64,000 nucleotides of DNA from Candidatus Staskawiczbacteria bacterium (GTDB lineage: Bacteria; Patescibacteriota; Minisyncoccia; Minisyncoccales; Staskawiczbacteraceae). Below the pieces are notes generated by a model, which was given only the letters and a program-made list of their open reading frames with translations, was not told the DNA's origin and made no database searches. The stretch spans positions 597,395-661,394 of the forward strand of contig JAHFKV010000001.1 of NCBI GenBank assembly GCA_023245155.1, given 5' to 3'. Shown here in pieces: positions 8,988 through 54,560 of the stretch. Position 1 is the first letter of the stretch. Each line of letters starts with the position of its first letter. The translations under genes and the position numbers were made by a program.

Positions 8988-8996
8988 TGAAATGGA

Positions 8997-9033
8997 AAAG
9001 CCTCTATTGTAGATGTACTACGCTAGAGGCTTT
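8997..9033 (-). terminator. hairpin terminator of cassette A
   Basis: Minus strand reads AAGCCTCTA-(17 nt)-TAGAGGCTT followed by TTTTCC. Confidence 0.5.
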
Positions 9034-9055
9034 CGCTATTTCCGGCATAGCTGCC

Positions 9056-9424
9056 TTAATCCGAAAAAAGCTTTCTGGCAGTTTCCCGCCATTCGGGGTC
9101 GCTCTTGCGCACGACCCTTCTTATCTTTTTCCAGTTCTCACGCATGACGGGTGACGGCCCCCACGAAATACTCTTTCCGTTCTTGTCGAAAAGGAAGCAT
9201 CCGTAGTGGTTTGAAGTTTCTCTGACCAAAAAGATCCCGTCATCTTTTTCAATCAGGTCACCGACGGCCAGATACTGGAGCCTTCGGTCGAGCTCTCGGA
9301 CTTGTTCCTGCTCTTCGGACGACAGGTCATCCAATGGACCTGGTCCGTGCGCCACCCATGCCGTACCGCAAGCTGCAGCAACGAGCACCAAGACCAACGT
9401 CCAAAAGGCACTTTTGCGACTCAT
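9056..9424 (-). CDS. hypothetical secreted or lipoprotein-like protein (GC-rich cassette A)
   Basis: 122 aa. Signal-like MSRKSAFWTLVLVLVAAAC. SD AAGGAG lies 6 nt before the ATG. Codons are GC-rich compared with the neighbours. Confidence 0.55.
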   Translation of the reverse strand: MSRKSAFWTLVLVLVAAACGTAWVAHGPGPLDDLSSEEQEQVRELDRRLQYLAVGDLIEKDDGIFLVRETSNHYGCFLFDKNGKSISWGPSPVMRENWKKIRRVVRKSDPEWRETARKLFSD

Positions 9425-9473
9425 GGAAAACTCCTTGTGCTATTCGAAAATTTATGTTTGCCCACGTGATACA

Positions 9474-9502
9474 AATATACTACAGACAAGCTTCTTTGTC
9501 AA
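9474..9502 (-). promoter_or_regulatory. cassette A promoter TTGACA-N17-TATATT
   Basis: Minus strand reads TTGACAaagaagcttgtctgtagTATATT. Confidence 0.5.
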
Positions 9503-9508
9503 TACAAG

Positions 9509-9530
9509 CAAAAAAGCCTCTTCCGAGACT
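9509..9530 (-). terminator. prfB terminator
   Basis: Minus strand reads AGTCTCggaaGAGGCTTTTTT, starting 3 nt after the prfB stop. Confidence 0.55.
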
Positions 9531-9532
9531 TT

Positions 9533-10619
9533 TTATTCACCCAGTTTTAACTCCGCTTGTATAAATTCTTCCAAATCACCATCTAAAACTTTTTCGGCCT
9601 GCGAAGTTTCATACTGCGTCCGTAAGTCTTTCACCATTTTATAGGGATGGAGCACATAGCTGCGGATCTGGCTGCCAAAGGCTGTGGTCATTTGCTCACC
9701 CTTAATGTCTTTCAATTCTTTCGCCTGTTGTTGTTGTTTTAAAGCATGGAGTTTGGCATACAGAACACTCATAGCATGTTCGCGGTTCCGGCCCTGGCTG
9801 CGTTCTGACTGGCTGGCAACCACCAAACCCGTTGGAATATGGGTAATACGAATGGCGCTTTCGGTTTTGTTGACATATTGCCCGCCCGGTCCTGAAGCGC
9901 GGAAGGTATCTACTCGTAAATCCACTGGGTTAATCTGCATATCTTCGGCCACTTCTTTAATTTCTGGCAGCACTTGTACTTGGGCGAACGAAGTATGGCG
10001 GAGTTTTTGGGCGGAAAACGGCGATTGACGGACTAAGCGATGAACCCCTGACTCTTTTTTCAAAAATCCATAGGCGTGACTGCCGCGGATTTCGAACGTA
10101 ACCGATTTAGTACCAATCCGCCCCTCCGGCCCGCCGCCTTCCCCAAAACTTTGGTGCAAAATTTCCGTTTGCCATCCCCGGGCATCGCAATAGCGCTGAT
10201 ACATCCTTAAAAGCATAGTAGTCCAATCTTGCGCCTCTACCCCTCCCGCTCCGCTGAAAATTTCCATAATGGCATTATTCTTATCATAAGGCTCCGACAG
10301 AAAAATTCTAAACTCCTGCTGCTCAACGTGCTTTTTTAAATGCGTGATGGCCCTTTCATCAACATGGCCCAGTTCTGCCAATTCTTTCACATCAGCCAAT
10401 GCTTTTTTTAGATGTTCCGCTACGGCCAGTTCTTCTTTTAAAGATGAAATTTGTTGGCTAATTTTGGCAGCTTCTTGCGAATCCTCCCAAAAATGCGGAG
10501 TCTGGGTTTTTGCTTCTAGTTCCGCCAGCGCTTTTTCTTTTACATCAACATCAAAGCCGGTCCACCAAATACTGGACTTTTTGTTCCAATTCGCCAATTT
10601 GCGTTACTGAATCAGCCAT
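9533..10619 (-). CDS. prfB: peptide chain release factor 2 (programmed +1 frameshift)
   Basis: Frame 0 is ATG(10619) MADSVTQIGELEQKVQYLVDRL followed by TGA. A +1 shift at CTT-TGA joins the 354-aa ORF frame at DVDVKEK. SPF and GGQ motifs are present. Confidence 0.9.
10551..10556 (-). other. prfB +1 frameshift site CTT TGA
   Basis: Minus strand reads GGTGGACCGG CTT TGA T. The in-frame UGA follows a slippery CUU-U, as in the classical RF2 autoregulatory site. Confidence 0.85.
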
Positions 10620-10659
10620 GTTGGTGGGATTAATATATGCTTCATTCTAGCATATTTTT

Positions 10660-10699
10660 GAGAAAAAGAAAAAGCCGCAGGTGAGTCCTACCTGCGGCT
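10660..10699 (-). terminator. terminator of cassette B
   Basis: Minus strand reads AGCCGCAGGTaggactcACCTGCGGCTTTTTCTTTTTC. Confidence 0.75.
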
Positions 10700-10721
10700 G
10701 AGGCTGGGGTTGTACGAACGG

Positions 10722-11021
10722 TCACGCCGGGGTTGGCGCTTCAACCGAGGCCGGAGCTTCAATGGGAACGCCCTTTTTCGTACAGACGAAGCAGGCGATT
10801 GCCTGCACCGTCAGGGGTTTGTCCGAAGGCAGCTCGTCGTTCCCGATAGTGATTGTGAATTCCGTTTCCAAATCCATGATCAACTGGGTGACGTCAATGG
10901 AATCCATTCCCAAGTCCGAGATCAGGGTATCGGGCCTGATCTCCTCGCGTTTCATCTTGCTGTTACCAGCGGCGGTGGAGACCTTGTCGCCGACTTTCTC
11001 CAGGACATCTGAGTACTTCAT
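10722..11021 (-). CDS. acyl carrier protein-like (GC-rich cassette B)
   Basis: 99 aa. LISDLGMDSIDVTQLIMDLETEF carries the ACP phosphopantetheine DS(L/I)D motif. SD GAGGGA lies 8 nt upstream. Confidence 0.6.
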   Translation of the reverse strand: MKYSDVLEKVGDKVSTAAGNSKMKREEIRPDTLISDLGMDSIDVTQLIMDLETEFTITIGNDELPSDKPLTVQAIACFVCTKKGVPIEAPASVEAPTPA

Positions 11022-11120
11022 GGCTACTATCCCTCAAAACCACGCACCTTCCGCCACCGTGGCGAGAAATCAATGTGCTACAAAAACTTTATCATAAAAT
11101 AGTTATTCCGTCCAGTCTCA

Positions 11121-12236
11121 CTACCTCACCGACTGGTACCCCTCCTTCACCCCTTTTTTAGAAAGCACCACTTGCCACAATTGAATATTGCGCGCCCGGA
11201 ATCCACCAGCACAGTTCAGTAAATAATACTTCCACATTTTGTAAAAACGCTCTGAATATTTTTCTTCCAGTGAGGACCAATTTTTATCAAAATTATTAAA
11301 CCAAGCCATTAATGTTTTATCATAATCCGAGCCAAAATTGTGCCAATCCTCCATCACAAATACACTTTCAATACTTTTTCCGATTTGCGAGATGGAAGGC
11401 AGCATACCATTGGGGAAAATATATTTTTCAATCCAAGGATCAATTGAACCACCCTTACTATTCCAACCAATCGTGTGTAGTAAAAATAAGCCGTTGTCTT
11501 TTAACAGTTGGCGGGCTTTTGTAAAAAATACTTTGTAATTTTTAGCACCCACGTGTTCAAACATACCCACTGAAACAATATGGTCAAACTGGCCGGTTAA
11601 TTTCCGATAGTCTTCCAGGATAATTTCAACCGGTAAGCCTTGGCACACCTCTTCAGCCAATTTTTTCTGTTCTTTGGAAACGGTAATCCCCACTCCACTG
11701 ACACCATACTTTTCCGCTGCGAATTTTAATAAGCCTCCCCAACCGCAGCCAATGTCTAAAATCCGGCCACCCTTTTTTAAACCAATTTTCCGGCAAATAA
11801 GATCCAGTTTGGCTTCTTGGGCTTCTGCTAAATTACGTGCATGGGCCCAATAGCCGCAACTATACACCATGCGCGGATCTAGCATAGCCTTATACACATC
11901 ATTTCCAATATCATAATGGTGCTGGCCAACCTGAAAGGCGCGCGAGACACTTTGTAAATTAAAGAGCCATGAACGGGCCGCGCTGAACAGAACCGGAAAA
12001 GTAAAATTAAAATCATGTTGCAGTTCAACGGTAAGTAATTTATAAAAAAATTGGTCAAGACTTTTAACATCCCACCAACCTTCAACATAGGAATCTCCCA
12101 ACGCCAAAGAGCCGCCCATTAAAACGCGAGTATACAACTTTTCATTATGGACTTGCGGGTCCCAATCATTCGGGCCATTTGGGGTAATCCCCGCTTTGCT
12201 TAAGATGGCTTGGGCTTTTTGTTTAGCTGAAAACAT
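11121..12236 (-). CDS. cfa: cyclopropane-fatty-acyl-phospholipid synthase family methyltransferase
   Basis: 371 aa with the SAM motif ILDIGCGWGG and a CFA/mycolic-acid-synthase-like layout (YDIGNDVY, FEHVG). Confidence 0.8.
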   Translation of the reverse strand: MFSAKQKAQAILSKAGITPNGPNDWDPQVHNEKLYTRVLMGGSLALGDSYVEGWWDVKSLDQFFYKLLTVELQHDFNFTFPVLFSAARSWLFNLQSVSRAFQVGQHHYDIGNDVYKAMLDPRMVYSCGYWAHARNLAEAQEAKLDLICRKIGLKKGGRILDIGCGWGGLLKFAAEKYGVSGVGITVSKEQKKLAEEVCQGLPVEIILEDYRKLTGQFDHIVSVGMFEHVGAKNYKVFFTKARQLLKDNGLFLLHTIGWNSKGGSIDPWIEKYIFPNGMLPSISQIGKSIESVFVMEDWHNFGSDYDKTLMAWFNNFDKNWSSLEEKYSERFYKMWKYYLLNCAGGFRARNIQLWQVVLSKKGVKEGYQSVR

Positions 12237-12266
12237 GTTGCTTACATTAATAATTAATAAAACAAG

Positions 12267-12337
12267 AGCCGCTTACAAGAATCGAACTTGTGCTTGCGCT
12301 TTACGAAAGCGCTGTTCTGCCACTGAACTAAAGCGGC
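12267..12337 (-). tRNA. tRNA-Thr (anticodon CGT)
   Basis: Hand fold: acceptor GCCGCTT/AAGCGGC, anticodon stem GCGCT/AGCGC, loop TTCGTAA, T-arm ACAAG-TTCGATT-CTTGT. Confidence 0.85.
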
Positions 12338-12382
12338 TTAATTACATCAGGATATCACCCGAAACCTCAAAAATCAATTCGC

Positions 12383-12775
12383 TCACTTCTTAAACCATCC
12401 GCCTATCCACCCCAGCCATAATTGCAACACATTGGGCTTAGTGGCTGGTGTAACGGCCTTCTGGTTAGAAGCTTGCACAAATGAAATTACTTTTTCACCG
12501 GACAATTGTAAATCCAATTCCTCCCGTGCAACTTTTTCAATGTAAGCTGGATCGTCTTGCCGGGCCATTCCTTCTTTTAACTGGGCATTCTGCTGTTTCA
12601 AATTTTCTACTTTTTGCTTTAACCCCAATACTTGTGTATCCAATTCTTTGTGCTTTTGATACACCTTCACATCAGCCACCACAAGGGTTATCAGTATTCC
12701 TACAATCGCCAAAGCGCCCAGATTAATAAAAAAACGGCGGTAAGGATTCTTGGTTTTTTTTTGAAAATCTGGCAT
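12383..12775 (-). CDS. septum formation initiator FtsB/DivIC-like
   Basis: Single TM followed by a coiled coil (LGLKQKVENLKQQNAQLKEGM...DPAYIEKVAREEL). Start placed at MPDFQKK; the ORF track extends to 12808. Confidence 0.6.
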   Translation of the reverse strand: MPDFQKKTKNPYRRFFINLGALAIVGILITLVVADVKVYQKHKELDTQVLGLKQKVENLKQQNAQLKEGMARQDDPAYIEKVAREELDLQLSGEKVISFVQASNQKAVTPATKPNVLQLWLGWIGGWFKK

Positions 12776-12878
12776 ACTGTTTATATGAAAACAAAAAAAC
12801 TTCTTCAAATAATCTGGATCGTTGCCATTATCATTGTGGCCCTGACCATGGTGATAGGAACCCTTGGCTATGGCCTAT

Positions 12879-13436: not shown

Positions 13437-13440
13437 GCCT

Positions 13441-15168: not shown

Positions 15169-16239
15169 TTAAATCGGCGCACCCCACTCTTCGTCTTTCG
15201 CCACTAAATTCTCGAGCGTTTCAATATTTTCCAAGGCAATTCCGCAACCGCGCACCACGGAAGTTAACGGATCATCAATAATCTTGCAGGGCATTTTAGT
15301 TTCTTTGGCAATCAACTGGTCCAGGCCGCGCAGCAGGGATCCCCCACCCGCCAAGAAAATGCCGTTAGTCATCACATCGGCCAATAACTCAGGTGGAGTT
15401 TCTTCAATGGTGGTTTTAATGGCTGCTACAATTTGTTTTACAGAACGGTCCAAAGCCCGCTGGATATCATCGTTAAAAATTACCACTTCTTCGGGCAAAC
15501 CGGTTACCAGATTGCGCCCCCGCATGGGCATTTCTTTTTTCTCTTTCATGGGAATAGCGCTGCCAATATTGATTTTAATGAATTCGGCCGTCCGCTCGCC
15601 AATCAGCAATTTATATTCTTTCTGGGCAAACTGGATAATATCATCGTTCAACTTATCCCCCGCTACCCGCAAACTGCGGAAGGCCACAATCCCACCCAAA
15701 GAAATTACGGCCACTTCCGTAGTTCCTCCGCCAATATCAACAATAAAATTTCCTCCTGGATCTTGAATAGGTAGCTTGGCGCCAATGGCCGAAGCCAAGG
15801 GTTCCTCAATCAAAAAAACCGTCCTTGCACCCGCATTTTTGGCGGCGTCTCTCACCGCTTTCCGCTCCACTTCTGTTACACCGCACGGAATGCCGATGAT
15901 AACCCGCGGCGAATAGCCGAAGCCCCACCATGTTTTGCTGCCAGCCACCGCTTTTTCAATGAAATACTTTAACATTTGCTCGGTCACTTCAAAATCTGAA
16001 ATTACCCCGTTCACCAACGGGCGGGTGGCAGTAATGTAGCTGGGCGTACGACCCACCATCTTTTTGGCTTCTTCCCCAATGGCTAAAATTTGGCCGGTTT
16101 TATTGTTTACCGCTACCACCGAAGGTTCGTTAATAATGATACCCCGGTCTTTCACGTACACCAAAGAATTGGCCGTTCCCAGGTCAATGGCCATGTCCAG
16201 CGATAAAAAAGAAAAGAGTTTTTTAAACGGATTAAACAT
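15169..16239 (-). CDS. mreB: rod shape-determining actin homolog MreB (copy 1)
   Basis: AIDLGTANSLVY, VDIGGGTTEVAV and LAGGGSLLRGL are actin-fold motifs. Confidence 0.85.
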   Translation of the reverse strand: MFNPFKKLFSFLSLDMAIDLGTANSLVYVKDRGIIINEPSVVAVNNKTGQILAIGEEAKKMVGRTPSYITATRPLVNGVISDFEVTEQMLKYFIEKAVAGSKTWWGFGYSPRVIIGIPCGVTEVERKAVRDAAKNAGARTVFLIEEPLASAIGAKLPIQDPGGNFIVDIGGGTTEVAVISLGGIVAFRSLRVAGDKLNDDIIQFAQKEYKLLIGERTAEFIKINIGSAIPMKEKKEMPMRGRNLVTGLPEEVVIFNDDIQRALDRSVKQIVAAIKTTIEETPPELLADVMTNGIFLAGGGSLLRGLDQLIAKETKMPCKIIDDPLTSVVRGCGIALENIETLENLVAKDEEWGAPI

Positions 16240-19915: not shown

Positions 19916-19944
19916 TTGACACAGAACTTTGGCTATGCTATAAA
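19916..19944 (+). promoter_or_regulatory. cassette C promoter TTGACA-N17-TATAAA
   Basis: Plus strand reads TTGACAcagaactttggctatgcTATAAA. Confidence 0.5.
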
Positions 19945-19994
19945 AACGAAAGAGGCGTACTTCACCCATCAACCACTGTAAGAGGATATTCCCC

Positions 19995-20216
19995 ATGCTC
20001 CCTCATTCCACGCAAACGGTTCCGAAGGCACTGATCCGCAACGCAATCGCGCGTTGCGAAAAGGACGACTTCTCGTACTTTAGTGCGATTGAGCACTTTT
20101 ACCAAACCTACGGAGGTACCCGCCTCCTGGACATGTTTCAAGTGTCCGAGCAGAGCTATCAAGCATGGCTTCTTGCAAGCACGGCCGACAAGCCCGATCT
20201 TGTCGAATGTGGTTGA
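19995..20216 (+). CDS. hypothetical 73-aa protein (GC-rich cassette C), possibly helix-turn-helix
   Basis: Supported by its own promoter, SD AAGAGGA 8 nt upstream and its own terminator. LLDMFQVSEQSYQAWL weakly resembles a Cro/XRE-type HTH. Confidence 0.5.
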   Translation: MLPHSTQTVPKALIRNAIARCEKDDFSYFSAIEHFYQTYGGTRLLDMFQVSEQSYQAWLLASTADKPDLVECG

Positions 20217-20263
20217 GGAATTCAACCCCTCCCGACCTCGCCCAACCTCGCTTGAGCCAATCG

Positions 20264-20303
20264 AGTCGCCTCATCTCTTCTGGGGGATCGGCGACTTTTT
20301 TTT
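20264..20303 (+). terminator. cassette C terminator
   Basis: AGTCGCC-(19 nt)-GGCGACT followed by T8. Confidence 0.6.
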
Positions 20304-20336: not shown

Positions 20337-21344
20337 CTACTTCTTAGTCATCACCACTTTCTTATATTCCTCCAAATGCTCTAACACCGTACCAGTTCCT
20401 TTAATAACGCAGAACAGAGGTTCTTCAGCGATAAAACATGGCACGCCGGTGCTTTGGGCCACCAATTCATTGATTTTTGGCAGCAGCGCTCCCCCACCCG
20501 CCATAATAATCCCTTTGTTCATAATGTCGGCTGATAATTCCGGCGGAGTTTCTGAAAGCACCTGCTTGACTGCCTGGATAATTTCTGAAAGCGTATCGGA
20601 AATAGCTTCGCAAACTTCATTGTTAGAAATTTTAATGTTGCGCGGCAGTCCTAAAATTAAGTCGCGACCCTGAATTTCCATGTAACGTAATTCTTTCTGG
20701 GGCAGAGCAGTACCCACTTTGATTTTAATTTCTTCGGCGCTCTGGGTTCCAATCGCCAAGTTGTATTTTTTCTTAATATATTCAGTGATGGCCATATCAA
20801 TTTTGTCGCCCGCCACCCGCACCGAATGAGCGGTGACAATCCCTCCCAAAGAAATCACAGCTACCTCCGAAGTACCTCCCCCAATATCAATAATCATGTG
20901 GCCCGAAGATGAATTAATGGGGATACCCGCTCCGATGGCTGCTAAAATAGGTTCTTTGGCCACAAAGGCGCTGCGGGCGCCAGCACTCAACGCCGCCTCA
21001 ATCACCGCCCGGCGTTCAGTGGAAGTAATGCCGGCGGGAACGGAAATAACTAATTCTGGTTTAAAAAATCTGAAGTTTGGGGTAGCCCTTGAGATGAAAT
21101 GCTTCATCATGGCCTGGGTGACTTTGTAGTCACCTATCACCCCGTCCTTGAGTGGCCGGTACACTTTAATATCTGCAGGCGTGCGCCCTATCATTTCTTT
21201 GGCTGCCTCACCCACAGCCAAAATCCGGTTATCAGATAAAGAAACGGCCACCACTGATGGCTCGCTTAATACTATTCCCTTCCCGCGGACATACACCAAC
21301 GAATTGCATGTGCCAAGATCAATGGCAATTTTATTATTGAACAT
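20337..21344 (-). CDS. mreB: rod shape-determining actin homolog MreB (copy 2)
   Basis: AIDLGTCNSLVY, IDIGGGTSEVAV and MAGGGALLPKI. Confidence 0.85.
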   Translation of the reverse strand: MFNNKIAIDLGTCNSLVYVRGKGIVLSEPSVVAVSLSDNRILAVGEAAKEMIGRTPADIKVYRPLKDGVIGDYKVTQAMMKHFISRATPNFRFFKPELVISVPAGITSTERRAVIEAALSAGARSAFVAKEPILAAIGAGIPINSSSGHMIIDIGGGTSEVAVISLGGIVTAHSVRVAGDKIDMAITEYIKKKYNLAIGTQSAEEIKIKVGTALPQKELRYMEIQGRDLILGLPRNIKISNNEVCEAISDTLSEIIQAVKQVLSETPPELSADIMNKGIIMAGGGALLPKINELVAQSTGVPCFIAEEPLFCVIKGTGTVLEHLEEYKKVVMTKK

Positions 21345-22648: not shown

Positions 22649-22692
22649 TTTTTGTATGCTTTATCCTATGCGATTTTATATTTAGTGTCAAT

Positions 22693-22721
22693 TTGACATT
22701 CTACACTATAAGTGATATTAT
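22693..22721 (+). promoter_or_regulatory. cassette D promoter TTGACA-N17-TATTAT
   Basis: Plus strand reads TTGACAttctacactataagtgaTATTAT. The -35 lies inside the inverted repeat GTCAAtTTGAC. Confidence 0.5.
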
Positions 22722-22786
22722 AGCAAGTACGAAGTCGTGGAAGTCCATGACAGCTATTTGACAATTCGCCCATCAAGGAGATTTTC

Positions 22787-23503
22787 GTGAACCCCCCCCA
22801 GCATCATCTCGTGATTCAACTCGGATCACAGGTGCAGTTTGTCGATGGCCAATACGTTCTGGCACCCCACACCCGAATGCGCACAGAAGCTTCCGCGATC
22901 ATCCTGAAAAAGGACATCGCACCCGTTCTGATGATCTCAGGTGGTTCCAACTTCGGTGTCCGCTACGGCGACAAGGAGTTACTCAAGCCCGCAGTCTTCT
23001 CGTTCGCTGCGTTCGCCCATGCCGACTTCGTTCGGAAATCCGAAGCAGCCGCTATCAAAGATGTCCTCGTCAATGAGTACGGCCTCACTTCTCCGCGAAT
23101 TTTTGCGGAGACGCTTTCCGCGACTACGGAGGAAAACGCGGAGTTCTCATTCGCCCTCCTGCGTCGAACACCGGCATTCGAAGGCGTTCAGCAAGTCGGC
23201 ATCCTCACACTCTTGTATCACATGGAACGGGCGTTCCCCATCTTCTACGCCACCCTGAAACGCGAAACCATCAAACGAAAGGCTTTCGCAGAAGCCGGAC
23301 TCGAGGCCGACAAGCTCACTGTCCGTCCTGATCTGAACATCAGGCCAGTCTTCGCCGAGAACGTGCTGGCTGACGACAACCCCTCCAATATTAATATGAT
23401 CTGCCAATACTACAGCACGCCCAAGGGCGGCAAACAGTATCCGGTCGATCGCATCCGGCAGCTGCTCACCGAAGGCAAGAGTCTGTACGAACTCATGGCT
23501 TAG
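22787..23503 (+). CDS. DUF218 / YdcF(ElyC)-like protein (GC-rich cassette D)
   Basis: 238 aa with a GTG start 6 nt after AAGGAG. MISGGSN...SEAAAIKDVLV...ETLSATTEENAEF matches the SGG...SEA...S.nT.EN pattern of DUF218. Confidence 0.6.
   Translation: MNPPQHHLVIQLGSQVQFVDGQYVLAPHTRMRTEASAIILKKDIAPVLMISGGSNFGVRYGDKELLKPAVFSFAAFAHADFVRKSEAAAIKDVLVNEYGLTSPRIFAETLSATTEENAEFSFALLRRTPAFEGVQQVGILTLLYHMERAFPIFYATLKRETIKRKAFAEAGLEADKLTVRPDLNIRPVFAENVLADDNPSNINMICQYYSTPKGGKQYPVDRIRQLLTEGKSLYELMA
22792..22799 (+). repeat. C8 homopolymer in codons 2-5 of the DUF218 gene
   Basis: GTG AAC CCC CCC CAG, giving eight consecutive C. Confidence 0.9.
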
Positions 23504-23508
23504 TTACT

Positions 23509-23552
23509 AAACCCACGCGTATTCCACGGAATACGTTTGGGTTTCTTTTTTT
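23509..23552. terminator. bidirectional terminator (cassette D / MFS gene)
   Basis: AAACCCAcgCGTATTCCacGGAATACGttTGGGTTT followed by a T-run. It abuts the MFS stop. Confidence 0.75.
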
Positions 23553-25734: not shown

Positions 25735-25766
25735 AAAAAATCCCCGCGAATGCGGGGATTTTTTTA
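25733..25766. terminator. bidirectional terminator between the PEGA gene and rpsI
   Basis: A8-TCCCCGCgaatGCGGGGA-T7. Confidence 0.8.
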
Positions 25767-32905: not shown

Positions 32906-32930
32906 TAAAATAACTTTATCATAATTTTTT

Positions 32931-32971
32931 AAAAGAAAAAAGTCGGCAAATCGCGACCGCGATTTGCCGAC
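32931..32971 (-). terminator. terminator of cassette E
   Basis: Minus strand reads GTCGGCAAATCGCGgtCGCGATTTGCCGAC followed by TTTTTTCTTTT. Confidence 0.8.
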
Positions 32972-32983
32972 ACTAAGCCCATA

Positions 32984-33262
32984 TCACCGAGGCAACTTCG
33001 CCTCTCTTTTTTGCAAGTCATCTCTCCAGTCCCGCAACCTCATTTCTTCCAACATGGCCGCATCGGCGCGTTTTTTCACTTTCATACTGTCTTCGAGCAT
33101 TTCTTTGCGTAGCCCCGCATTCTCTTCTTTGAGCTCCTGGTACTTTGCTTCAAGAACTACATTATCTACATTCTTATTCTCAAGTATGGCGACCCAGACA
33201 CACTGAGAACCCAGCACCATGCCCAAGAACAACATAAGACCAATCCACCTTCGTTTTGACAT
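32984..33262 (-). CDS. hypothetical 92-aa TM + coiled-coil protein (cassette E, ORF3)
   Basis: MSKRRWIGLMLFLGMVLGSQCVWVAIL followed by a charged coiled coil. SD GGGGGAG lies 6 nt before the ATG at 33262; the ORF track extends to 33307. Confidence 0.45.
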   Translation of the reverse strand: MSKRRWIGLMLFLGMVLGSQCVWVAILENKNVDNVVLEAKYQELKEENAGLRKEMLEDSMKVKKRADAAMLEEMRLRDWRDDLQKREAKLPR

Positions 33263-33270
33263 GCGAAACT

Positions 33271-33277
33271 CCCCCCC
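33271..33277 (-). repeat. G7 homopolymer forming the SD of cassette E ORF3
   Basis: Minus strand reads tgtGGGGGGGagtttcgcATG. Confidence 0.85.
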
Positions 33278-33333: not shown

Positions 33334-33372
33334 CAAAAAAACACCCCCACAAACTCCAGTTTGTTAGGGTGT
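33334..33372 (-). terminator. internal hairpin + T-run between cassette E ORF2 and ORF3
   Basis: Minus strand reads ACACCCTAACAAACtggagtTTGTGGGGGTGT followed by TTTTTTT. Confidence 0.6.
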
Positions 33373-33396
33373 CCTGAGGCGTACCGTACCCCTTTT

Positions 33397-33606
33397 TCAT
33401 TCTTTGGGACTCCCGTTGGGATGGGCAATCTCAAGAACGATTACAGAAACCAATAAGATTGGCCCTAGGGCGGATGAAATTGTCACCGACCTCCAACTCC
33501 GAAACCCAATTTGGGGATCGTCTGGATAGATTCGGTTATATCGACGCGCACCCAGTATGCCACCGACTAAACCGCAAACTACCCAGAGCAATGACATAAC
33601 AATCAC
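33397..33606 (-). CDS. hypothetical 69-aa two-TM protein (cassette E, ORF2)
   Basis: SD AAGGAG lies 5 nt before the GTG at 33606 (ATG alternative at 33597). (M)IVMSLLWVVCGLVGGILG...ALGPILLVSVIVLEIA. The long ORF-track N-terminal extension has no support. Confidence 0.4.
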   Translation of the reverse strand: MIVMSLLWVVCGLVGGILGARRYNRIYPDDPQIGFRSWRSVTISSALGPILLVSVIVLEIAHPNGSPKE

Positions 33607-33776
33607 AATATCTCCTTGGCGAAAGGAATGGTATCCATTTTTTACGAACGCTCGCAGGGGTGGATTTTCCCTTCTCTCAAACCACAAACTTTTTGTGGGC
33701 TGGGAGAAGAGAGGGAAGAGTGGCGCCGAAACGCTCACCCTTCCTCTTGGCGTATTCGCACAATACGCCTTCTGAA

Positions 33777-34031
33777 TTACACCCGAAGTGCCCGAAGAGC
33801 ACATTCCACCTCATGCTCATTCTCATCGTGGTCGGTTCGAACCCAGAAAGGAGTATAGTCGAGCTCTCCTGCCCGAATGACATACGCCTTTTCGTACTCC
33901 ACGCCCTTCATGTGAGCGTGGCGGACGATGTTCCACGACGTACCGTAAACGCCAGTACCAGGTGACGCGAGTTGAATAATGAGAATTCCCGCGGTCACGA
34001 GACGGCTATTCACGAACAGTACGGTCAACAT
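33777..34031 (-). CDS. hypothetical 84-aa protein (cassette E, ORF1)
   Basis: SD TAAGGAGGA lies 4-5 nt before the ATG at 34031. MLTVLFVNSRLVTAGILIIQLASPG.... No family recognised. Confidence 0.45.
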   Translation of the reverse strand: MLTVLFVNSRLVTAGILIIQLASPGTGVYGTSWNIVRHAHMKGVEYEKAYVIRAGELDYTPFWVRTDHDENEHEVECALRALRV

Positions 34032-34271
34032 GGCATCCTCCTTAAGAGGTCTCACCCAGCCAACGGGGTGCCCATTTTGGGATGAAGTGAAATACCTAAC
34101 CTAGCGAAAGCTAGATTTAAGATACATTCCCTTCTTTCAAATCACTATAGAAATCTTTGTGTAGATAATCTGCCATAAAAGCGATATCAGTTATTCAACT
34201 AATGATCTGAAAGAAGAGTAGAGGATTTTCAACGTTCTAGCCTTATTTGCCCATTTACCCTCTATATCTTA

Positions 34272-34300
34272 ATCATACACCTATCAAGATATCTTGTCAA
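34272..34300 (-). promoter_or_regulatory. cassette E promoter TTGACA-N17-TATGAT
   Basis: Minus strand reads TTGACAagatatcttgataggtgTATGAT, about 235 nt upstream of the first cassette ORF. Confidence 0.5.
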
Positions 34301-34320
34301 TACCCCCTCGCCAACCCACC

Positions 34321-34344
34321 AAAAACACCCTTTTTAGAGGGTGT
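34321..34344 (-). terminator. terminator of the YkuK-like gene
   Basis: Minus strand reads ACACCCTctaaaaAGGGTGTTTTT. Confidence 0.65.
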
Positions 34345-35608: not shown

Positions 35609-35641
35609 AAAAAAAGAAGCCCGGGTAGTGCTCTACCCGGG
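35609..35641 (-). terminator. terminator of cassette F
   Basis: Minus strand reads CCCGGGTAGagcaCTACCCGGG followed by CTTCTTTTTTT. Confidence 0.75.
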
Positions 35642-35659
35642 TCCGAGACTCATCTCTTC

Positions 35660-35944
35660 TTATGCTGAGATAAGCTCCCCGCCCACCACCCTTACGGTGG
35701 CGCCAACGTTGAACTTGCCTGCCTTCTTCACCGACACTAGAATCGGGGCGGGGAGCTTCTCCCCATTCGACCGGACGAGATGAAACTTGAAGTAGCCAGC
35801 CGTGGGTGGCTCCTCGATGTGTTGAACCTTCAACACTTCGCCATCTTCGGCGACGCGGGCCCTCCGACCCTTTCGGAAAGCCATGATACCGGCGATCACG
35901 GCAATTGCGAGCCCCACGCCAAGGCCACTGAAAAAATTCAACAT
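35660..35944 (-). CDS. hypothetical 94-aa N-terminally anchored protein (GC-rich cassette F)
   Basis: MLNFFSGLGVGLAIAVIAGIMAFRKGRR followed by a soluble domain. SD GAGGA lies 7 nt upstream. Confidence 0.5.
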   Translation of the reverse strand: MLNFFSGLGVGLAIAVIAGIMAFRKGRRARVAEDGEVLKVQHIEEPPTAGYFKFHLVRSNGEKLPAPILVSVKKAGKFNVGATVRVVGGELISA

Positions 35945-36009
35945 CTTTCTATCCTCATGGGCGAAACCGAGGGGAACCCCCTCAAATTGTCAAAAAACAC
36001 CATGGTCTC

Positions 36010-36038
36010 ATTGTACACCCATCCTATACTTCTGTCAA
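36010..36038 (-). promoter_or_regulatory. cassette F promoter TTGACA-N17-TACAAT
   Basis: Minus strand reads TTGACAgaagtataggatgggtgTACAAT. The -35 lies inside the last codons of map (KVLTEV). Confidence 0.5.
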
Positions 36039-49606: not shown

Positions 49607-49703
49607 AGCTTTTAAAAATGAGATTAATTAATTTTATTTATATTTTTATATTACAGATATTATATTATTACACCTTTAAAAATAAGTCAATTGGTATAGC
49701 AGC

Positions 49704-51782
49704 CTACTTCCCCCGGCTTTCGATAATCTGTGTTGCCACGTTATTAGGCACCACTTCATAATTGTTAAATTCCATAGTGAAACTTGCTCGACCTTCGGTG
49801 AGAGATCTTAAGGCTGTGGCATATCCAAACATTTCTGAAAGCGGAACCATCGCATCTAATACTTTCATGCCATTGCGCTCTTTAGTTTCTTCAATTTTAC
49901 CGCGCCTTGAAGACAAGTCAGAAATAACCGTTCCAAAAAAGTCTTCCGGGGTAATAACTTCGGTTTTCATAATCGGCTCTAAAATAACGGGCTTGGCGGC
50001 TTTAGCACCTTGCTGAACCGCCATAGAACCTGCGATTTTGAAAGCAAATTCTGAAGAGTCAACTTCGTGGAAGCTTCCGTCATACAACGTTACCTGCACG
50101 TCAACCATTGGGTAACCGGCAATAATTCCCTTATCCAAAGCTTCAATAATACCTTTTTCGGTAGGCTTGATAAATTCTTTGGGAATGGCTCCTCCTTTAA
50201 TTTCGTCAACGAATTCAAAACCCGCTCCCCGTTCACGCGGCGCCAAACGGATTTTCACATGGCCATACTGTCCCTTACCACCAGATTGCCTTGCATACTT
50301 TTCTTCGGCCTGCGATTCGGCGGTGATAGTTTCACGGTAGGCCACCTGCGGTTTTCCGAAGTTAGCATCCACATTAAATTCGCGGCGCAACCTGTCCTGA
50401 ATAATATCCAAATGCAACTCGCCCATGCCAGAAATAATCGTTTCGCCCGTTTCAATATCTTCTTTAATCCTGAACGTTGGATCTTCTTGGGTCAGCTTTC
50501 TGATAGAAGCGATCAGTTTTTCCTGGTCAGCTTTGGTTTTTGGCTCAACCCGCATGGAAATAACCGGTTCAGGGAAAGAAATCTTTTCCAATACAATCGG
50601 TTTTTGCATGTCACACAAGGTGTGACCGGTAACCGTGTTTTTCAAACCAACCGTGGCACCAATTTCCCCGGCATAAATGACATCCAGCTCTTCGCGGCTA
50701 TTTGACTTCATGCGCAAAATACGTGCGATCCGTTCTTGGTCACCCGTTACCGAATTCAACAAATACGTTCCCTTATTCAAAACTCCAGAATATACCCGAA
50801 AAAAAGTAAGCTGGCCAACGAATGGATCTGTGGCCACCTTAAAAACTAACGCGGAAAAGGGTTCGTCATCTGAGAATTTCCGTTCAATTTCGGCACCGGT
50901 TTTTGGATCGGTTCCTTTTACCAAACCAATATCCAATGGACTTGGAAGATAATCAATCACTGCATCCAAAATTAATTGGGTTCCCTTGTTTTTCAAAGCA
51001 GTTCCGCAAAATACCGGTACGAGCTTAAAGGCAAGGGTTGCTTTTCGCAAAGCTGCCATTAATTCTTCGCGGGAAATTACTTCCCCACCCAGCAATTTAT
51101 CGGTTAATTTTTCATCGCTGCCGGCAATCATGTCTACCATTTTTTCATGCCACTGTTTAGCTTTTTCTAAGACTTCATCTGGAATTTCTTTTTCCACCAC
51201 GTTTTGACCCATATCACCTTCATAGGAAAGCATTTTCATTTTCAGCAAATCAACCACGCCGGCAAAATCAGCTTCGGTGCCCACGGGAATGGTTATCGCC
51301 ACCGCGTTTTTGGTCAATTTATCATGGATGCTTTGGAAAGATTTTTCAAAGCTGGCACCCATTCTGTCTAATTTGTTAATAAAACAAATCCGAGGTGTGC
51401 CATATTTATCAGCTTGTCTCCAGACCGTTTCAGATTGGGGTTCTACGCCGGCTACGCCGTCAAACACCACGCAAGCGCCGTCCAACACGCGTAACGAACG
51501 CTGCACTTCAGCGGTAAAATCAATGTGGCCGGGAGTGTCAATCAAGTTCATTTGAATCCCCTTCCACTGCATGGTAATAGCGGCAGCAGTAATGGTAATA
51601 CCGCGTTCTCGTTCTTGGGGCATCCAGTCCATTACCGTGTCCCCTTCGTGCACTTCGCCGATTTTGTGGGAAACACCAGTATAAAACAAAAGCCGTTCAG
51701 ACACAGTCGTCTTACCGGCGTCAATGTGAGCAATAATTCCAAAGTTTCTAAGTTTTTCTAAAGGATGAGAACGATTAGCCAT
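49704..51782 (-). CDS. fusA: elongation factor G
   Basis: AHIDAGKTT, DTPGHIDF and NKLD. 692 aa. Confidence 0.95.
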   Translation of the reverse strand: MANRSHPLEKLRNFGIIAHIDAGKTTVSERLLFYTGVSHKIGEVHEGDTVMDWMPQERERGITITAAAITMQWKGIQMNLIDTPGHIDFTAEVQRSLRVLDGACVVFDGVAGVEPQSETVWRQADKYGTPRICFINKLDRMGASFEKSFQSIHDKLTKNAVAITIPVGTEADFAGVVDLLKMKMLSYEGDMGQNVVEKEIPDEVLEKAKQWHEKMVDMIAGSDEKLTDKLLGGEVISREELMAALRKATLAFKLVPVFCGTALKNKGTQLILDAVIDYLPSPLDIGLVKGTDPKTGAEIERKFSDDEPFSALVFKVATDPFVGQLTFFRVYSGVLNKGTYLLNSVTGDQERIARILRMKSNSREELDVIYAGEIGATVGLKNTVTGHTLCDMQKPIVLEKISFPEPVISMRVEPKTKADQEKLIASIRKLTQEDPTFRIKEDIETGETIISGMGELHLDIIQDRLRREFNVDANFGKPQVAYRETITAESQAEEKYARQSGGKGQYGHVKIRLAPRERGAGFEFVDEIKGGAIPKEFIKPTEKGIIEALDKGIIAGYPMVDVQVTLYDGSFHEVDSSEFAFKIAGSMAVQQGAKAAKPVILEPIMKTEVITPEDFFGTVISDLSSRRGKIEETKERNGMKVLDAMVPLSEMFGYATALRSLTEGRASFTMEFNNYEVVPNNVATQIIESRGK

Positions 51783-51793
51783 AATATCAGTAA

Positions 51794-52264
51794 TTATCTT
51801 GAACGAGCAAAATGGGCAAATGCTTTGTTGGCTTCTGCCATTCTATGCATGTCGTTCTTTTTCTTCATCGCGGCGCCTTCGTTGTTAGCTACATTCATAA
51901 TTTCTTGGGCCAATTTTTCTTGCATGGCTTTTCCTTTTCCTGAACGGGCGCCATCAATAATCCACTTTAAGGCTAAAAATATTTTTCGTTCCTGTCTTAC
52001 TTCCATGGGTACTTGATAGGTTGCTCCTCCAATTCTTTTTGGTTTCACTTCAAGCAAGGGCGAAGCATTTTCCACGGCCTGCTTAAAAACTTCCAAAGGC
52101 TCTTTCTTGGTTTTTTCTTTAATGGCATCAAAAGCACCATACACAATGTGCTGGGCTACGGTTTTCTTGCCACCCTGCATCACCTTATTAATCAGTTGCG
52201 CAACAGCAACTTCATTATAAACTGAATCCGGGGCAATATGATGTTTTTTAAAAGCTCGTCTCAT
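51794..52264 (-). CDS. rpsG: 30S ribosomal protein S7
   Basis: 156 aa. [15 protein letters not shown]...[16 protein letters not shown]. Confidence 0.9.
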
Positions 52265-52266
52265 AT

Positions 52267-52686
52267 TTACTTATCTTTTTTGGGCATTTTCGCTCCGTAT
52301 CTGCTTCTGCCCTGTTTTCTATTTTCCACTCCAGTGGTATCTAACACACCACGAACAATATGGTATCGTACTCCCGGCAAGTCCTTCACCCTGCCTCCGC
52401 GGATTAGCACCACGCTGTGTTCTTGCAAATTATGACCTTCTCCGGGAATGTAAGCAGTCACCTCCATGCCATTGGATAATTTAACCCTGGCTACTTTTCT
52501 TAAAGCAGAGTTCGGTTTTCTGGGAGTTTGGGTAAACACTTTCAAACAAACCCCCCGCTTAAATGGCGAGGGATAGGTTGATGGCCGGTTTTGCAACACA
52601 TTAAAACCGTAATGCAAAGCCACGCCTTTTTTCTTGGCCTTCACACCCTTGCGGGGGTTTTTAATTAATTGATGAATCGTTGGCAT
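52267..52686 (-). CDS. rpsL: 30S ribosomal protein S12
   Basis: MPTIHQLIK...[15 protein letters not shown]...[14 protein letters not shown]. Confidence 0.95.
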
Positions 52687-52724
52687 TCTTTTTTAAAACA
52701 ATAAGCGCAAAGCGCTTGATAATA

Positions 52725-52753
52725 ACTTTAACAAAATATTAATCCTGTGTCAA
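52725..52753 (-). promoter_or_regulatory. rpsL (str operon) promoter TTGACA-N17-TAAAGT
   Basis: Minus strand reads TTGACAcaggattaatattttgtTAAAGT. This shows the native promoter type matches the cassette promoters. Confidence 0.5.
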
Positions 52754-52756
52754 CTA

Positions 52757-53377
52757 CTACATGCCCGTAATGATGTGGAAAATCAATCCCACTATGGGCT
52801 GAATGTATTGGATGCCGAAAAAAATGAAGAAGATCAGGATAAATAACCCATATTGGTGCATGAAAACTTTAAACTGGTTGAATTGGCTGGGCAGCAGGTC
52901 TAAAAAAATGTGTGACCCGTCCAGCGGGGGTATGGGCACTAAGTTAAAAACCGCCAGTAAAATATTAATCTGGACAACCAGTAGTAAAAATATTCCCAAC
53001 GGAGCAAAAAAGATGTTTTCAGGAAGAAAACGTAACACTAATCCGAATACCACTGCCAACCCCATGTTAGAAACCGGACCAGCCAATGCCACTTTCATAC
53101 TTCCCCACTTTTGGTCTCTTAAATTATAAGAATTAACGGGCACGGGTTTGGCCCAACCAAACACTGGTCCTTGTCCTGCCGTGGCCAACAATAATACCAG
53201 GGGCAGTATAATTGACCCGAACATGTCTAAGTGTTTTAGGGGGTTTAACGTAAGCCGGCCCTGATATTTTGCTGTTGGATCACCCAATGAATAAGCTACC
53301 GAACCATGGGAAACTTCATGGATAACTACCGAAAACAGCAAGATGATTAATGAAAAAATAGTTATAGCTATATCCAT
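52757..53377 (-). CDS. site-2 protease family (M50B) membrane metalloprotease, no PDZ
   Basis: HEVSHG...RLTLNPLKHLD...NLVPIPPLDGS. Confidence 0.75.
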   Translation of the reverse strand: MDIAITIFSLIILLFSVVIHEVSHGSVAYSLGDPTAKYQGRLTLNPLKHLDMFGSIILPLVLLLATAGQGPVFGWAKPVPVNSYNLRDQKWGSMKVALAGPVSNMGLAVVFGLVLRFLPENIFFAPLGIFLLLVVQINILLAVFNLVPIPPLDGSHIFLDLLPSQFNQFKVFMHQYGLFILIFFIFFGIQYIQPIVGLIFHIITGM

Positions 53378-53396
53378 AGATGTATAGTATCAGATG

Positions 53397-53425
53397 TTGC
53401 AAAATATAGGAAGATAGGGTAGGAT
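53397..53425 (+). promoter_or_regulatory. rpmB promoter TTGCAA-N17-TAGGAT
   Basis: Plus strand reads TTGCAAaatataggaagatagggTAGGAT. Confidence 0.4.
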
Positions 53426-53501
53426 ACATTCATTACAGAAAAGGTATCCAGCGTCCCGCTCAGCGGGACGAGTTTAATTTATTAACTTCGCTCATCGATT
53501 C

Positions 53502-53687
53502 ATGGCTTCAAAAATTTGTACAATCTGCGGTAAGAAATCTCAAATGGGTGGTTTTTACGTAAAATTACGCGGCAAGTTCAATCCCACTAAAAAAGTACGC
53601 AGGTACCCGAATTTGCAATGGACTCGCGTTGACGGCAAGCGGACGTTGGCTTGCGCCAAATGTATCAAAGCCCAAGCACGAGTATAG
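53502..53687 (+). CDS. rpmB: 50S ribosomal protein L28 (Zn-ribbon C+ form)
   Basis: MASKICTICGKK...RRYPNLQ...ACAKCIK. Confidence 0.85.
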   Translation: MASKICTICGKKSQMGGFYVKLRGKFNPTKKVRRYPNLQWTRVDGKRTLACAKCIKAQARV

Positions 53688-53692
53688 TGTTT

Positions 53693-53763
53693 CGGGGCAT
53701 CGTATAGAGGTAGTACGCATGGCTGGGGGTCATGTAGCCTGAGTTCGATTCTCAGTGCCCCGA
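53693..53763 (+). tRNA. tRNA-Pro (anticodon GGG)
   Basis: Hand fold: acceptor CGGGGCA/TGCCCCG, anticodon stem CATGG/TCATG, loop CTGGGGG, T-arm CTGAG-TTCGATT-CTCAG. Confidence 0.8.
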
Positions 53764-53780
53764 CAAAAACCAATCTTATC

Positions 53781-53808
53781 AAAAAAAGCGCTGCTCGGCG
53801 CTTTTTTT
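53781..53808. terminator. bidirectional hairpin after tRNA-Pro
   Basis: A7-GCGCtgctcgGCGC-T7. Confidence 0.65.
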
Positions 53809-53811
53809 GTA

Positions 53812-53840
53812 TTGAATTTCAAAAATAATACTGATAGGAT
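53812..53840 (+). promoter_or_regulatory. cassette G promoter TTGAAT-N17-TAGGAT
   Basis: Plus strand reads TTGAATttcaaaaataatactgaTAGGAT. Confidence 0.4.
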
Positions 53841-53909
53841 ACACTAACAATCGAGATCATCCATTGTTACCGCACCTACACAATCAAAACTTTTTGGGAA
53901 GGGGCACTC

Positions 53910-54497
53910 ATGACCGAAAAAGAAGTTATTGCAATGTTCAGGGAAGTCGGCGCAATCAAGAAGGGCCACTTTGTCCTCGCATCCGGTAGACACGCCAAAA
54001 CCCGCATTGAAAAAGTCCTGCTCTATCCGTACACCAAAAAAGTGGATCAACTGTGCTGGGAAATCGCCGAGTATTTTTCCAGGGATTACCCATGCATTGT
54101 CATCGCTCCGGCAACCGGTGGGATTATCCTTTCCCACTGCGTCGCTGACCACATGTCTCGCATGGCAAGCCGAACAGTGCTTAGTCTCTATGCGGAAAAG
54201 ACCAAGGGTGAAAATGGTTTTACGATCAACCCTGGTTATCGCGAGTTCATTAAGGGCAAGGACGTGCTTGTCTTAGAAGATATATTAACCACCGGCGGGT
54301 CTGTCAAAAAAGTTATCCGGCAGGTCCGACGATGGGGTGGCAAAGTCATTGGCGTAGGGGCCCTCTGGAACCGCGGAGGTATTACCGCCAAGGACTTGGG
54401 TGATGTGCCCAAACTCTTCAGCCTGGTGAACGTAACGTTAGAGACTTTCACCAGAGGGAAGTGCCAAAAGTGCAAAGCAAACCGCTCTAAAGTCTGA
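53910..54497 (+). CDS. type I phosphoribosyltransferase, orotate PRTase-like (GC-rich cassette G)
   Basis: KGHFVLASGRH...APATGGI...VLVLEDILTTGGS (PRPP-binding loop). 195 aa. SD-like GGAAGGGG lies 5 nt upstream. Confidence 0.65.
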   Translation: MTEKEVIAMFREVGAIKKGHFVLASGRHAKTRIEKVLLYPYTKKVDQLCWEIAEYFSRDYPCIVIAPATGGIILSHCVADHMSRMASRTVLSLYAEKTKGENGFTINPGYREFIKGKDVLVLEDILTTGGSVKKVIRQVRRWGGKVIGVGALWNRGGITAKDLGDVPKLFSLVNVTLETFTRGKCQKCKANRSKV

Positions 54498-54525
54498 AAA
54501 GCCACAGCTATTTATACAAAGTTCT

Positions 54526-54560
54526 AAAAGGTTTTCGTTTTTCGGACGAAAACCTTTTTT
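54526..54560 (+). terminator. cassette G terminator
   Basis: AAAAGGTTTTCGtttttcggaCGAAAACCTTTTTT. Confidence 0.8.

Follow-up and report, generated by a model that had tools for sequence, protein, structure and literature searches.

The genomes of bacteria of the candidate phyla radiation (CPR) are regarded as small, streamlined and rather static, and the gain of surface and metabolic genes for the host-dependent life of these bacteria is poorly understood. How such genes may arrive is a question raised in a concrete form by a stretch of 64,000 nt from a Candidatus Staskawiczbacteria bacterium (GenBank assembly GCA_023245155.1, contig JAHFKV010000001.1, positions 597,395 to 661,394; hereafter the window), with a G+C (GC) content of 43.2%, where a dense, co-directional array of core genes is interrupted by seven short cassettes, named here A to G. 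These cassettes are flanked by ftsE, prfB, cfa, holB, mreB, murA, a major facilitator superfamily (MFS) gene, alaS, tpiA, map and a tRNA-Pro gene. Where do they come from, and why do they lie at these junctions? Our answer, which we consider reasonably probable, is that the seven cassettes form a flexible accessory layer at junctions that are hotspots of gene turnover, and that they were drawn laterally from a pool of higher-GC Parcubacteria, not from a host. This answer is carried by a dichotomy between cassettes and core in composition, codon usage and Shine-Dalgarno (SD) use, by the signals of the units, by their presence and absence in relatives, and by the discordant phylogeny of cassette D.

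The ProS protein of the window has its best match, at 75% identity, in a metagenome-assembled genome of Candidatus Staskawiczbacteria labelled L002, followed by matches in Parcubacteria and Patescibacteria; L-numbers (L002, L082, L086, L091 and so on) are used throughout as labels of the related contigs or loci compared with the window. A preliminary description of this DNA had already proposed autonomous, foreign-looking units at junctions of a conserved core, a view with which the signals, the composition and the site variation in relatives agree. Its cassette coordinates and open reading frames (ORFs) were found again here, and its names for the flanking genes agree with the Pfam matches recorded for the same contigs.

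Composition and translation signals

The deviating composition of the cassettes had been proposed from hand counts, namely 64 G+C in 120 nt of cassette D and 26 in 60 nt of murA. Both counts are exact on recount, and the deviation in GC, in GC at third codon positions (GC3) and in codon usage is significant once computed for the nine cassette ORFs and 70 core genes of the window. The GC content of the cassette ORFs ranges from 0.466 to 0.575, against 0.423 ± 0.036 in the core, whose maximum is 0.495 (Mann-Whitney p=1e-6), and their GC3 from 0.46 to 0.72, against 0.420 ± 0.059 (Mann-Whitney p=2e-6). The codon adaptation index (CAI) is 0.49-0.58 in the cassettes and 0.71 ± 0.04 in the core, and each cassette ORF lies below each core gene both in CAI and in synonymous-codon likelihood (Mann-Whitney U=0, p=6e-7), the preference being displaced towards codons such as CTC (0.31 vs 0.05) and GTC (0.41 vs 0.09). 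The periodicity GC1>GC2<GC3 over the three codon positions is present in eight of the nine cassette ORFs, E2 being the one without the usual pattern.

The two sets of genes are also separated by their initiation signals. The energy of the duplex with the anti-SD ranges from -5.8 to -12.1 kcal/mol in the nine cassette ORFs, whereas the core mean of -1.45 kcal/mol is weaker than the mean of random positions, -2.4 (cassettes vs core, p=4e-6). Thus, the strong SD that had been described for every cassette ORF is found by duplex energy in 9/9, the core genes being without it, and no further SD-led intergenic ORF was found in the window. About half of the Parcubacteria 16S genes have been reported to have no detectable anti-SD motif (PMC9297842).

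Junctions in relatives and the source of the cassettes

The core gene order of the window is kept in about 45 related contigs, and variation is found at exactly the cassette junctions. The site of A is empty in L091, whose FtsE is 92% identical and where prfB and ftsE overlap with no terminator; the same contig carries, at the site of B, an unrelated SD-led gene for a 417-aa protein with a metallo-beta-lactamase fold. Six relatives show four different occupants and two empty states at the site of C (holB|mreB), which is empty in L090 and L022 and holds unrelated ORFs in L002, L004, L086 and L088. The site of F (map|tpiA) measures less than 200 nt in 14 of 20 relatives (2-30 nt in most), including the closest ones, L092 and L099, where it is empty, and the remaining six are occupied, always by non-homologous ORFs. 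The site of E is occupied in 19 of 28 relatives, never by E homologues. The reverse situation is seen at the mreB2|gatC junction, empty in the window and filled in L002, L088 and L090. Hence, the comparison of synteny that the preliminary description had proposed gives empty sites for A and F, and other content or none for B, C and E; at sites B, C, E and F the same interval between core genes holds accessory content that differs among relatives. Two contigs depart from the common order: L094, a relative by its RpsL, differs in synteny beyond the gene for an M50 peptidase, and in L136 (400-4400) the matches to ykuK, tpiA and map are broken up, duplicated and inverted over both strands, a picture that points to a copy of this core segment which has been rearranged or pseudogenised.

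The accessory genes of the relatives resemble the cassettes in their signals. The longest ORF of their gaps has a median SD energy of -8.15, and 65% of them reach -7 or lower, a level attained by 0% of control ORFs (p=3e-4); the mean GC excess of these gap ORFs over their own core is +0.056, positive in 26 of 29. In the ykuK|alaS gap, which is the site of E, many relatives (L101, L103, L105, L107, L120, L121) carry a conserved family of SD-led ORFs of 116-129 aa that has core GC, keeps its SD and has no homologue in the window. Because gap genes of relatives are SD-led even in this family of about 120 aa at core GC, an SD is what stand-alone accessory genes natively use in this family of bacteria, and not, as had been supposed, the mark of a donor.

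The history of D is different from that of the other cassettes, since both L002 and L086 have a homologue next to murA, on the opposite strand, with a strong SD and a comparable excess of GC (0.556 vs 0.413 for the genome in L002; 0.50 vs 0.427 in L086). The view that all seven cassettes are private acquisitions is thereby not supported, and the finding that had been named as evidence against it, the same cassettes with the same composition at the same sites in all relatives, is partly made here, for D in these two genomes. Even though it shares this position, D of the window is 55% identical to the D of L002 and L086, and 70% identical to that of L082. In a neighbour-joining tree of 30 taxa with 100 bootstraps, it groups with the D of L082 (60% GC) and L138 (57% GC) in 99/100 replicates and never with L002. 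D is likewise discordant with the core by the four-point condition on pairwise identities, D being the cassette for which phylogeny was tested. L082 belongs to the Parcubacteria by its MetRS, as shown for this one of the high-GC D genomes, and all named members of the D family are Staskawiczbacteria. Repeated lateral insertion of autonomous cassettes is supported for A, B, C and F, and for D we would read the data as lateral exchange within Parcubacteria, including the in-place replacement of a resident D allele. The D homologue of L082 (5954-7788), the closest one, is separated by some 200 nt from a gene for an IS30-like transposase (HTH_38 plus rve) on a contig of 60% GC, and other D homologues are in unrelated contexts.

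Codon usage points in the same direction as the D tree. L082 has the CTC and GTC preference of the cassettes (0.54 and 0.42), and its codon model describes B, C, D, E3 and F better than the model of the window core does (for D, -1.11 vs -1.39), whereas the core genes of the window fit the L082 model poorly. Since window D groups with the D of Parcubacteria of 57-60% GC, and L082 shares the codon preference of the cassettes, their source is likely a gene pool among higher-GC Parcubacteria rather than a host.

According to this reading, the window would represent a conserved, tightly packed core array of Staskawiczbacteria-like Parcubacteria, whose core genes would be translated without an SD. 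Each cassette unit would be an insulated expression module (terminator, sigma-70-type promoter, 5' leader, strong SD, ORF and terminator), transcribed alone, translated via its SD, and located at an operon junction tolerant of insertion. Such junctions would be family-wide turnover hotspots, where contents are gained, replaced and lost, and the cassettes would have been acquired laterally from a pool common to higher-GC Parcubacteria, a direction of transfer that we infer. As the boundary patterns described below were defined after they had been seen, the mechanism also stays an inference: recombination might take place at the flanking core genes, or at repeated terminator or promoter-leader modules.

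Several points weigh against a lateral origin from this pool. For none of the cassettes did a donor sequence above 70% amino-acid identity come to light, none has a linked recombinase, and neither the retrieved loci nor the family libraries showed a homologue of C, E1-E3 or F, nor did the viral scan show one for F (the large protein databases were not searched for these). The codon model of L082 fits neither E1 nor E2, and E1 agrees with no donor model tested; the D tree was built by neighbour-joining as the sole method; and the empty sites of A/B and F are seen in one to few close relatives. No 16S rRNA gene lies in any retrieved locus, so the anti-SD cannot be read there, and the pattern of paired hairpins was defined after being seen. 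In addition, D lies beside murA with a high GC3 in three genomes while its proteins are 55-60% identical, its GC3 exceeds that of the host genome in all seven genomes examined, and the GC excess of SD-led gap genes is systematic, so that a mutational or selective cause could yield the same picture; in the case of D, this could mean long residence with composition held by selection.

The best-surviving alternative takes up these last points and holds that the cassettes are old, vertically inherited genes, whose GC3, codons and SD are maintained by selection or by a local mutational bias, and whose absences are losses due to streamlining. The persistence of D beside murA in the window, L002 and L086, where a high GC3 is kept despite 45% protein divergence, would suit this explanation, as would the conservation of SD and leader hairpin in D and in NUDIX genes. 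However, the D tree contradicts the core tree (99/100), and D homologues occur in unrelated contexts, once beside the transposase gene mentioned above. Core genes abut or overlap at the A and F sites in most relatives, which makes the packed state look ancestral; occupied sites hold non-homologous genes; and the six cassette proteins found in protein records are singletons at 90% identity. We therefore regard this alternative as unlikely, though it deserves to be kept in mind.

The donor proposed in the preliminary description was of another kind: moron-like acquisitions were to come from an SD-using, higher-GC organism outside the CPR, for example the host of the episymbiont. The sharp difference in composition and SD between cassettes and core agrees with such a donor, as do the few or absent traceable relatives of A, C, E and F, and G, the only cassette with named relatives outside the CPR, has some in Chthoniobacterales and other Verrucomicrobia at 48-51% identity. 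Nevertheless, no relative of G exceeds 55%, and its best match (53%) belongs to the pyrimidine operon of a genome that has 42% GC and no SDs. Gap genes across the family initiate as a rule from an SD, also at core GC; the named members of the D family are Staskawiczbacteria only, and its nearest branch is in high-GC Parcubacteria; the codon preference of the cassettes, with five ORFs fitting the L082 codons, matches a Parcubacteria genome; and a leader motif is common to C, D and F, the leader of D being conserved across the family. A host donor appears improbable on these grounds.

The assembly itself is supported by independent records. Cassettes B, C and D occupy the same positions in a separate 93-kb ENA contig, C and D are also on a 16-kb Logan contig and C on a 3-kb one. 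The exact proteins of A, B, C, D, E3 and F are recorded from several sources, and all except that of F stand on a record of 661,750 bp as well, for which NCBI is one of the sources; for the exact E1, E2 and G sequences as read here no record was found. Since separate ENA and Logan assemblies agree on the location of B, C and D and the recorded proteins come from several sources, a chimeric assembly is unlikely, and we give very little credence to an artefact in general (chimera, contaminating reads or chance ORFs in GC-rich spacers), for which the metagenomic origin of the genome, the lack of homologues of C, E1-E3 and F and the odd codon-position pattern of E2 could speak, against the codon periodicity of the other eight ORFs, the Pfam matches of B, D and G above cutoff, the existence of relatives of A, the -35 box of the F promoter within map codons and the coherence of the signals on the correct strand.

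Units, boundaries and products

The seven cassettes make up at least eight transcription units, each ending, as described before, in its own hairpin and T-run. The count of six cassettes with their own promoter was generous: those of A, D, E and F are the top matches of the promoter scans (11/12 to TTGACA-N17-TATAAT) and that of C reads TTGACA-N17-TATAAA, but those of B and G are weak and were not flagged.

Cassette A (8996-9534, minus strand) begins at the terminator downstream of prfB (9510-9534) and comprises a promoter (9474-9502), an SD (9431-9436, energy -8.0), an ORF of 122 aa (9056-9424, GC 0.528) and a terminator (8996-9033), after which the ftsE promoter follows (8959-8987). Cassette B (10669-11120, minus strand) has a weak promoter with its -10 at 11091-11096, an SD at 11030-11035, an ORF of 99 aa (10722-11021; GC 0.55, GC3 0.72) and a terminator at 10669-10699. 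On the plus strand, C (19916-20303) consists of a promoter (19916-19944), the leader motif TTCACCCAT (19961-19969), an SD (19980-19986), an ORF of 73 aa (19995-20216) and a terminator (20263-20303), and D (22693-23552) of a promoter (22693-22721), a 5' hairpin (22734-22751), the motif TTCGCCCAT (22765-22773), an SD (22775-22780), an ORF (22787-23503; GC 0.555, GC3 0.674) and a terminator (23509-23552). The start of D is ambiguous between GTG at 22787, with the SD, and ATG at 22877, as in the public annotation.

Cassette E, on the minus strand, had been taken as one cassette of three ORFs. The ORFs are as described, but because of an internal terminator (33335-33372) they form at least two stacked units. 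The E3-E2 unit (33335-34344) has an upstream terminator (34321-34344), a promoter (34272-34300) and a leader of about 230 nt, followed by E3 as first ORF (33777-34031, 84 aa; SD 34036-34044) and E2 as second (33397-33606, 69 aa; SD 33612-33617). E1 (32936-33277) consists of an SD (33269-33277), an ORF of 92 aa (32984-33262) and a terminator (32936-32971); with a GC of 0.466 it is the least deviant unit. A conserved element of the E leader, matching L115 and L090, was considered as an RNA gene and rejected as a shared near-consensus extended -10 promoter, and at gathering and E-value thresholds Rfam gave no RNA family in any cassette or in this long leader.

Cassette F (35609-36038, minus strand; GC 0.575) has its promoter at 36010-36038, a leader hairpin at 35969-35983, TTCGCCCAT at 35957-35965, an SD at 35952-35956, an ORF of 94 aa (35660-35944) and a terminator at 35609-35641. 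Its -35 box TTGACA (36033-36038, minus strand) lies inside the last map codons, where the F-less relative L092 has TTAACT, so the promoter is partly built from host coding sequence. Cassette G (53781-54589, plus strand) starts 17 nt past tRNA-Pro (53693-53764) with a left terminator (53781-53808), followed by a weak promoter (53812-53840), an SD (53897-53904), an ORF (53910-54497), its own terminator (54527-54560) and a right terminator (54566-54589).

The preliminary description had seen no flanking direct repeats or attC-like sites. Repeats and hairpins at the flanks are, however, present, since paired terminator hairpins bracket A (9510-9534 and 8996-9033), E3-E2 (34321-34344 and 33335-33372) and G (53781-53808 and 54566-54589), with common stems and different loops, each pair being unique in the window; the stems of E3-E2, ACACCC/GGGTGT, are found nowhere else in it. 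Both outer terminators of G lie within an imperfect direct repeat of about 45 nt (z=5.7) that starts next to tRNA-Pro and is itself a bidirectional terminator. By Smith-Waterman comparison of left and right boundaries, G is the only significant case, A being marginal (p~0.04) and E3-E2 not significant (p~0.08). D in L086 is likewise bracketed by paired hairpins, and in the comparison of all loci, confined to 41 gap regions, 4 of 37 hairpin pairs of the same region share a stem core, against a background of 0.46%.

Recurrent elements are also seen in the leaders. The motif TTCRCCCAT occurs only four times in the window, three of them directly 5' of the SDs of C, D and F, and the leaders of D and F align over about 45 nt, with a 20-nt hairpin inserted in F. 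In L086, adjacent NUDIX (9247-10003) and DUF218 (9854-10932) genes carry near-identical promoter and 5'-hairpin leaders of about 75 nt, and their terminators have outer stems in common (GCCCATC...GATGGGC). The leaders of D and NUDIX genes each keep a 5' hairpin in single-sequence folds, its stem sequence varying between genomes; RNAalifold reached no consensus on nine such leaders, since the alignment does not bring their hairpins into register, and no universal leader motif was found over all SD-led gap genes of the family. It is conceivable, albeit speculative, that two translation regimes coexist here, an SD-independent core and exchangeable SD-led cassettes, the latter moving between genomes and sites via their own regulatory modules, that is, terminator hairpins, promoter-leaders and the TTCRCCCAT motif. 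If so, the expression of the cassettes could be controlled en bloc through the availability of the anti-SD.

Regarding the products, A, E1-E3 and F resemble small proteins of the membrane, lipoproteins or secreted proteins, judging by eye from hydrophobic N-termini or segments and with no predictor. A has a lipoprotein-like N-terminus and six relatives among 1.8e9 representative proteins, its AlphaFold model being unusable at a predicted local distance difference test (pLDDT) score of 45. E1 has a signal or transmembrane segment and a charged helix, E2 two hydrophobic segments, and the model of F (pLDDT ~65) an N-terminal hydrophobic segment and a small beta-barrel with no significant PDB match. 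For C no family match appeared in the libraries searched. The other three had been assigned to an acyl carrier protein (ACP), a DUF218 protein and a phosphoribosyltransferase (PRTase). The second is clear, D being a DUF218/YdcF protein (PF02698, 44.9 bits vs a cutoff of 27.6, the domain being present in 96 of its homologues), and the type I PRTase fold of G stands as well (PF00156, 46.3 vs 26.3). B exceeds the cutoff of PF00550 (33.4 bits vs 20.8) and carries the DS motif (LGMDSIDV), but remains below all NCBIfam ACP cutoffs (best 40.8 vs 71), so that it may be called a divergent ACP-like protein.

G is closest to the Thermus-type PyrE, TIGR01367 (pyrE_Therm), with 117.5 bits under a cutoff of 150.25. 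It stands alone, its 53% homologue in L097 being a true pyrE between pyrD and pyrC, and an identity as orotate phosphoribosyltransferase PyrE was rejected for this sub-cutoff score and the missing context of pyrimidine-pathway genes. Scans of viral contigs for A, D and F gave no match, and no specific defence or phage family was found for the cassette proteins, as PHROGs returned only generic ACP and PRTase matches and PADLOC only a weak ShosT-like PRTase match for G.

The core array has features of its own. The prfB gene contains, at 10549-10619 (minus strand), a classical programmed +1 frameshift, with ATG at 10619, an in-frame CTT TGA at 10549-10558 and GGTGG just before it; the site is also present in L091, and this internal SD-like element hints at a functional anti-SD. 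In front of the operon-first genes ftsE, murA and alaS (regions 8959-8987, 22663-22691 and 32906-32935, minus strand), a -10 box lies some 7-15 nt away from the start codon and an SD is absent, so that they look like leaderless or very-short-leader mRNAs. Two MreB paralogues (15169-16239 and 20337-21344, minus strand), about 47% identical to each other as judged from cross-matches in relatives, keep their positions in L002, L086, L088 and L090. Between a 311-aa ORF and the convergent rpsI lies a bidirectional terminator (25737-25762) with a perfect 11-bp stem (AAAATCCCCGC/GCGGGGATTTT), whose Rfam matches to Leu_leader are sub-threshold and very probably spurious. At the end of the window, a 1781-aa ORF (58627-63972, minus strand) of unusual composition (GC2 0.55, local GC skew +0.2 to +0.3) comes after a pair of further large ORFs (54985-58625); a signal-peptide-like start is seen in the first and the last of these three. 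The cumulative GC skew flips at this ORF (~58.6 kb), which looks like an effect of the gene's own composition.

Significance and comparison with known systems

Three independent signals mark the accessory layer, namely its GC3 and codon usage, its use of SDs, and a private promoter plus terminator, and through them the flexible genes of such genomes can easily be singled out. Being mostly small and apparently membrane-bound or secreted, these genes are candidates for host interaction, and the window suggests that Parcubacteria exchange genes with one another across wide differences in GC instead of receiving them from hosts. The conserved SDs of accessory genes beside an SD-less core raise, moreover, a question about the ribosome.

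Among known systems, phage morons were named first. Those described by Hendrix and colleagues are reportedly autonomous promoter-ORF-terminator units of atypical GC located between conserved phage genes. The cassettes resemble them as self-contained transcription units of atypical composition between genes that are adjacent in relatives: they have their own promoter and terminator and are absent from the same junction in relatives, except for D, which is present in L002 and L086. Contrary to morons, however, their backbone is a cellular housekeeping array, no phage genes flank them, and the viral and PHROG searches gave nothing specific, so an identity as morons proper was rejected for their location.

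Integron cassettes are, likewise, small, mostly single-ORF units bounded by hairpin-forming sites, in arrays that vary between relatives. Here, in contrast, the units have their own promoters, their hairpins are T-run terminators, and they are scattered instead of arrayed at one attI. An integron identity was rejected on these differences, with no integrase noticed in the window (its proteins were not all scanned, and the attC model was not run) and no cassette protein matching one. The location of G next to tRNA-Pro, with its imperfect repeat, recalls a tRNA-linked island, but one with no integrase and with a repeat that is a terminator.

In the PeSL cassettes of T4-type phages, novel ORFs are flanked by repeated modules of promoter and stem-loop terminator, which are proposed to mediate excision and insertion and which supply transcription signals of their own (Arbiol et al. 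2010, PMC2839356). The paired hairpins around A, E3-E2 and G, and the duplicated promoter-leader and terminator modules of the NUDIX and DUF218 genes in L086, are the counterpart of these modules. Nevertheless, the repeats found here are short, confined to the stems and different in each pair, with no family-wide consensus of about 100 bp, and the setting is chromosomal, with cassettes known from their sequence, whereas mini-circles are a feature of PeSL. If the two translation regimes considered above were real, they would amount to a chromosomal, integrase-free counterpart of PeSL mini-circle shuffling.

The closest comparison is with the hotspots of horizontal gene transfer, where accessory genes are concentrated in few intervals between syntenic core genes and are turned over rapidly (Oliveira, Touchon, Cury & Rocha 2017, PMC5635113). 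As in those, the cassettes lie between syntenic core genes and their contents differ among relatives; unlike those, they are single-gene islets of 0.4-1.5 kb in the ribosomal-protein and cell-division operon arrays of a CPR genome of less than 1 Mb, and each islet has a complete set of signals and differs from the core both in initiation mode and in composition. The window is thus an unusually clean case of accessory islets at known gene-transfer hotspots in a CPR genome, which adds to them a class of SD-led accessory genes set against an SD-less core, and cassettes flanked by modules.

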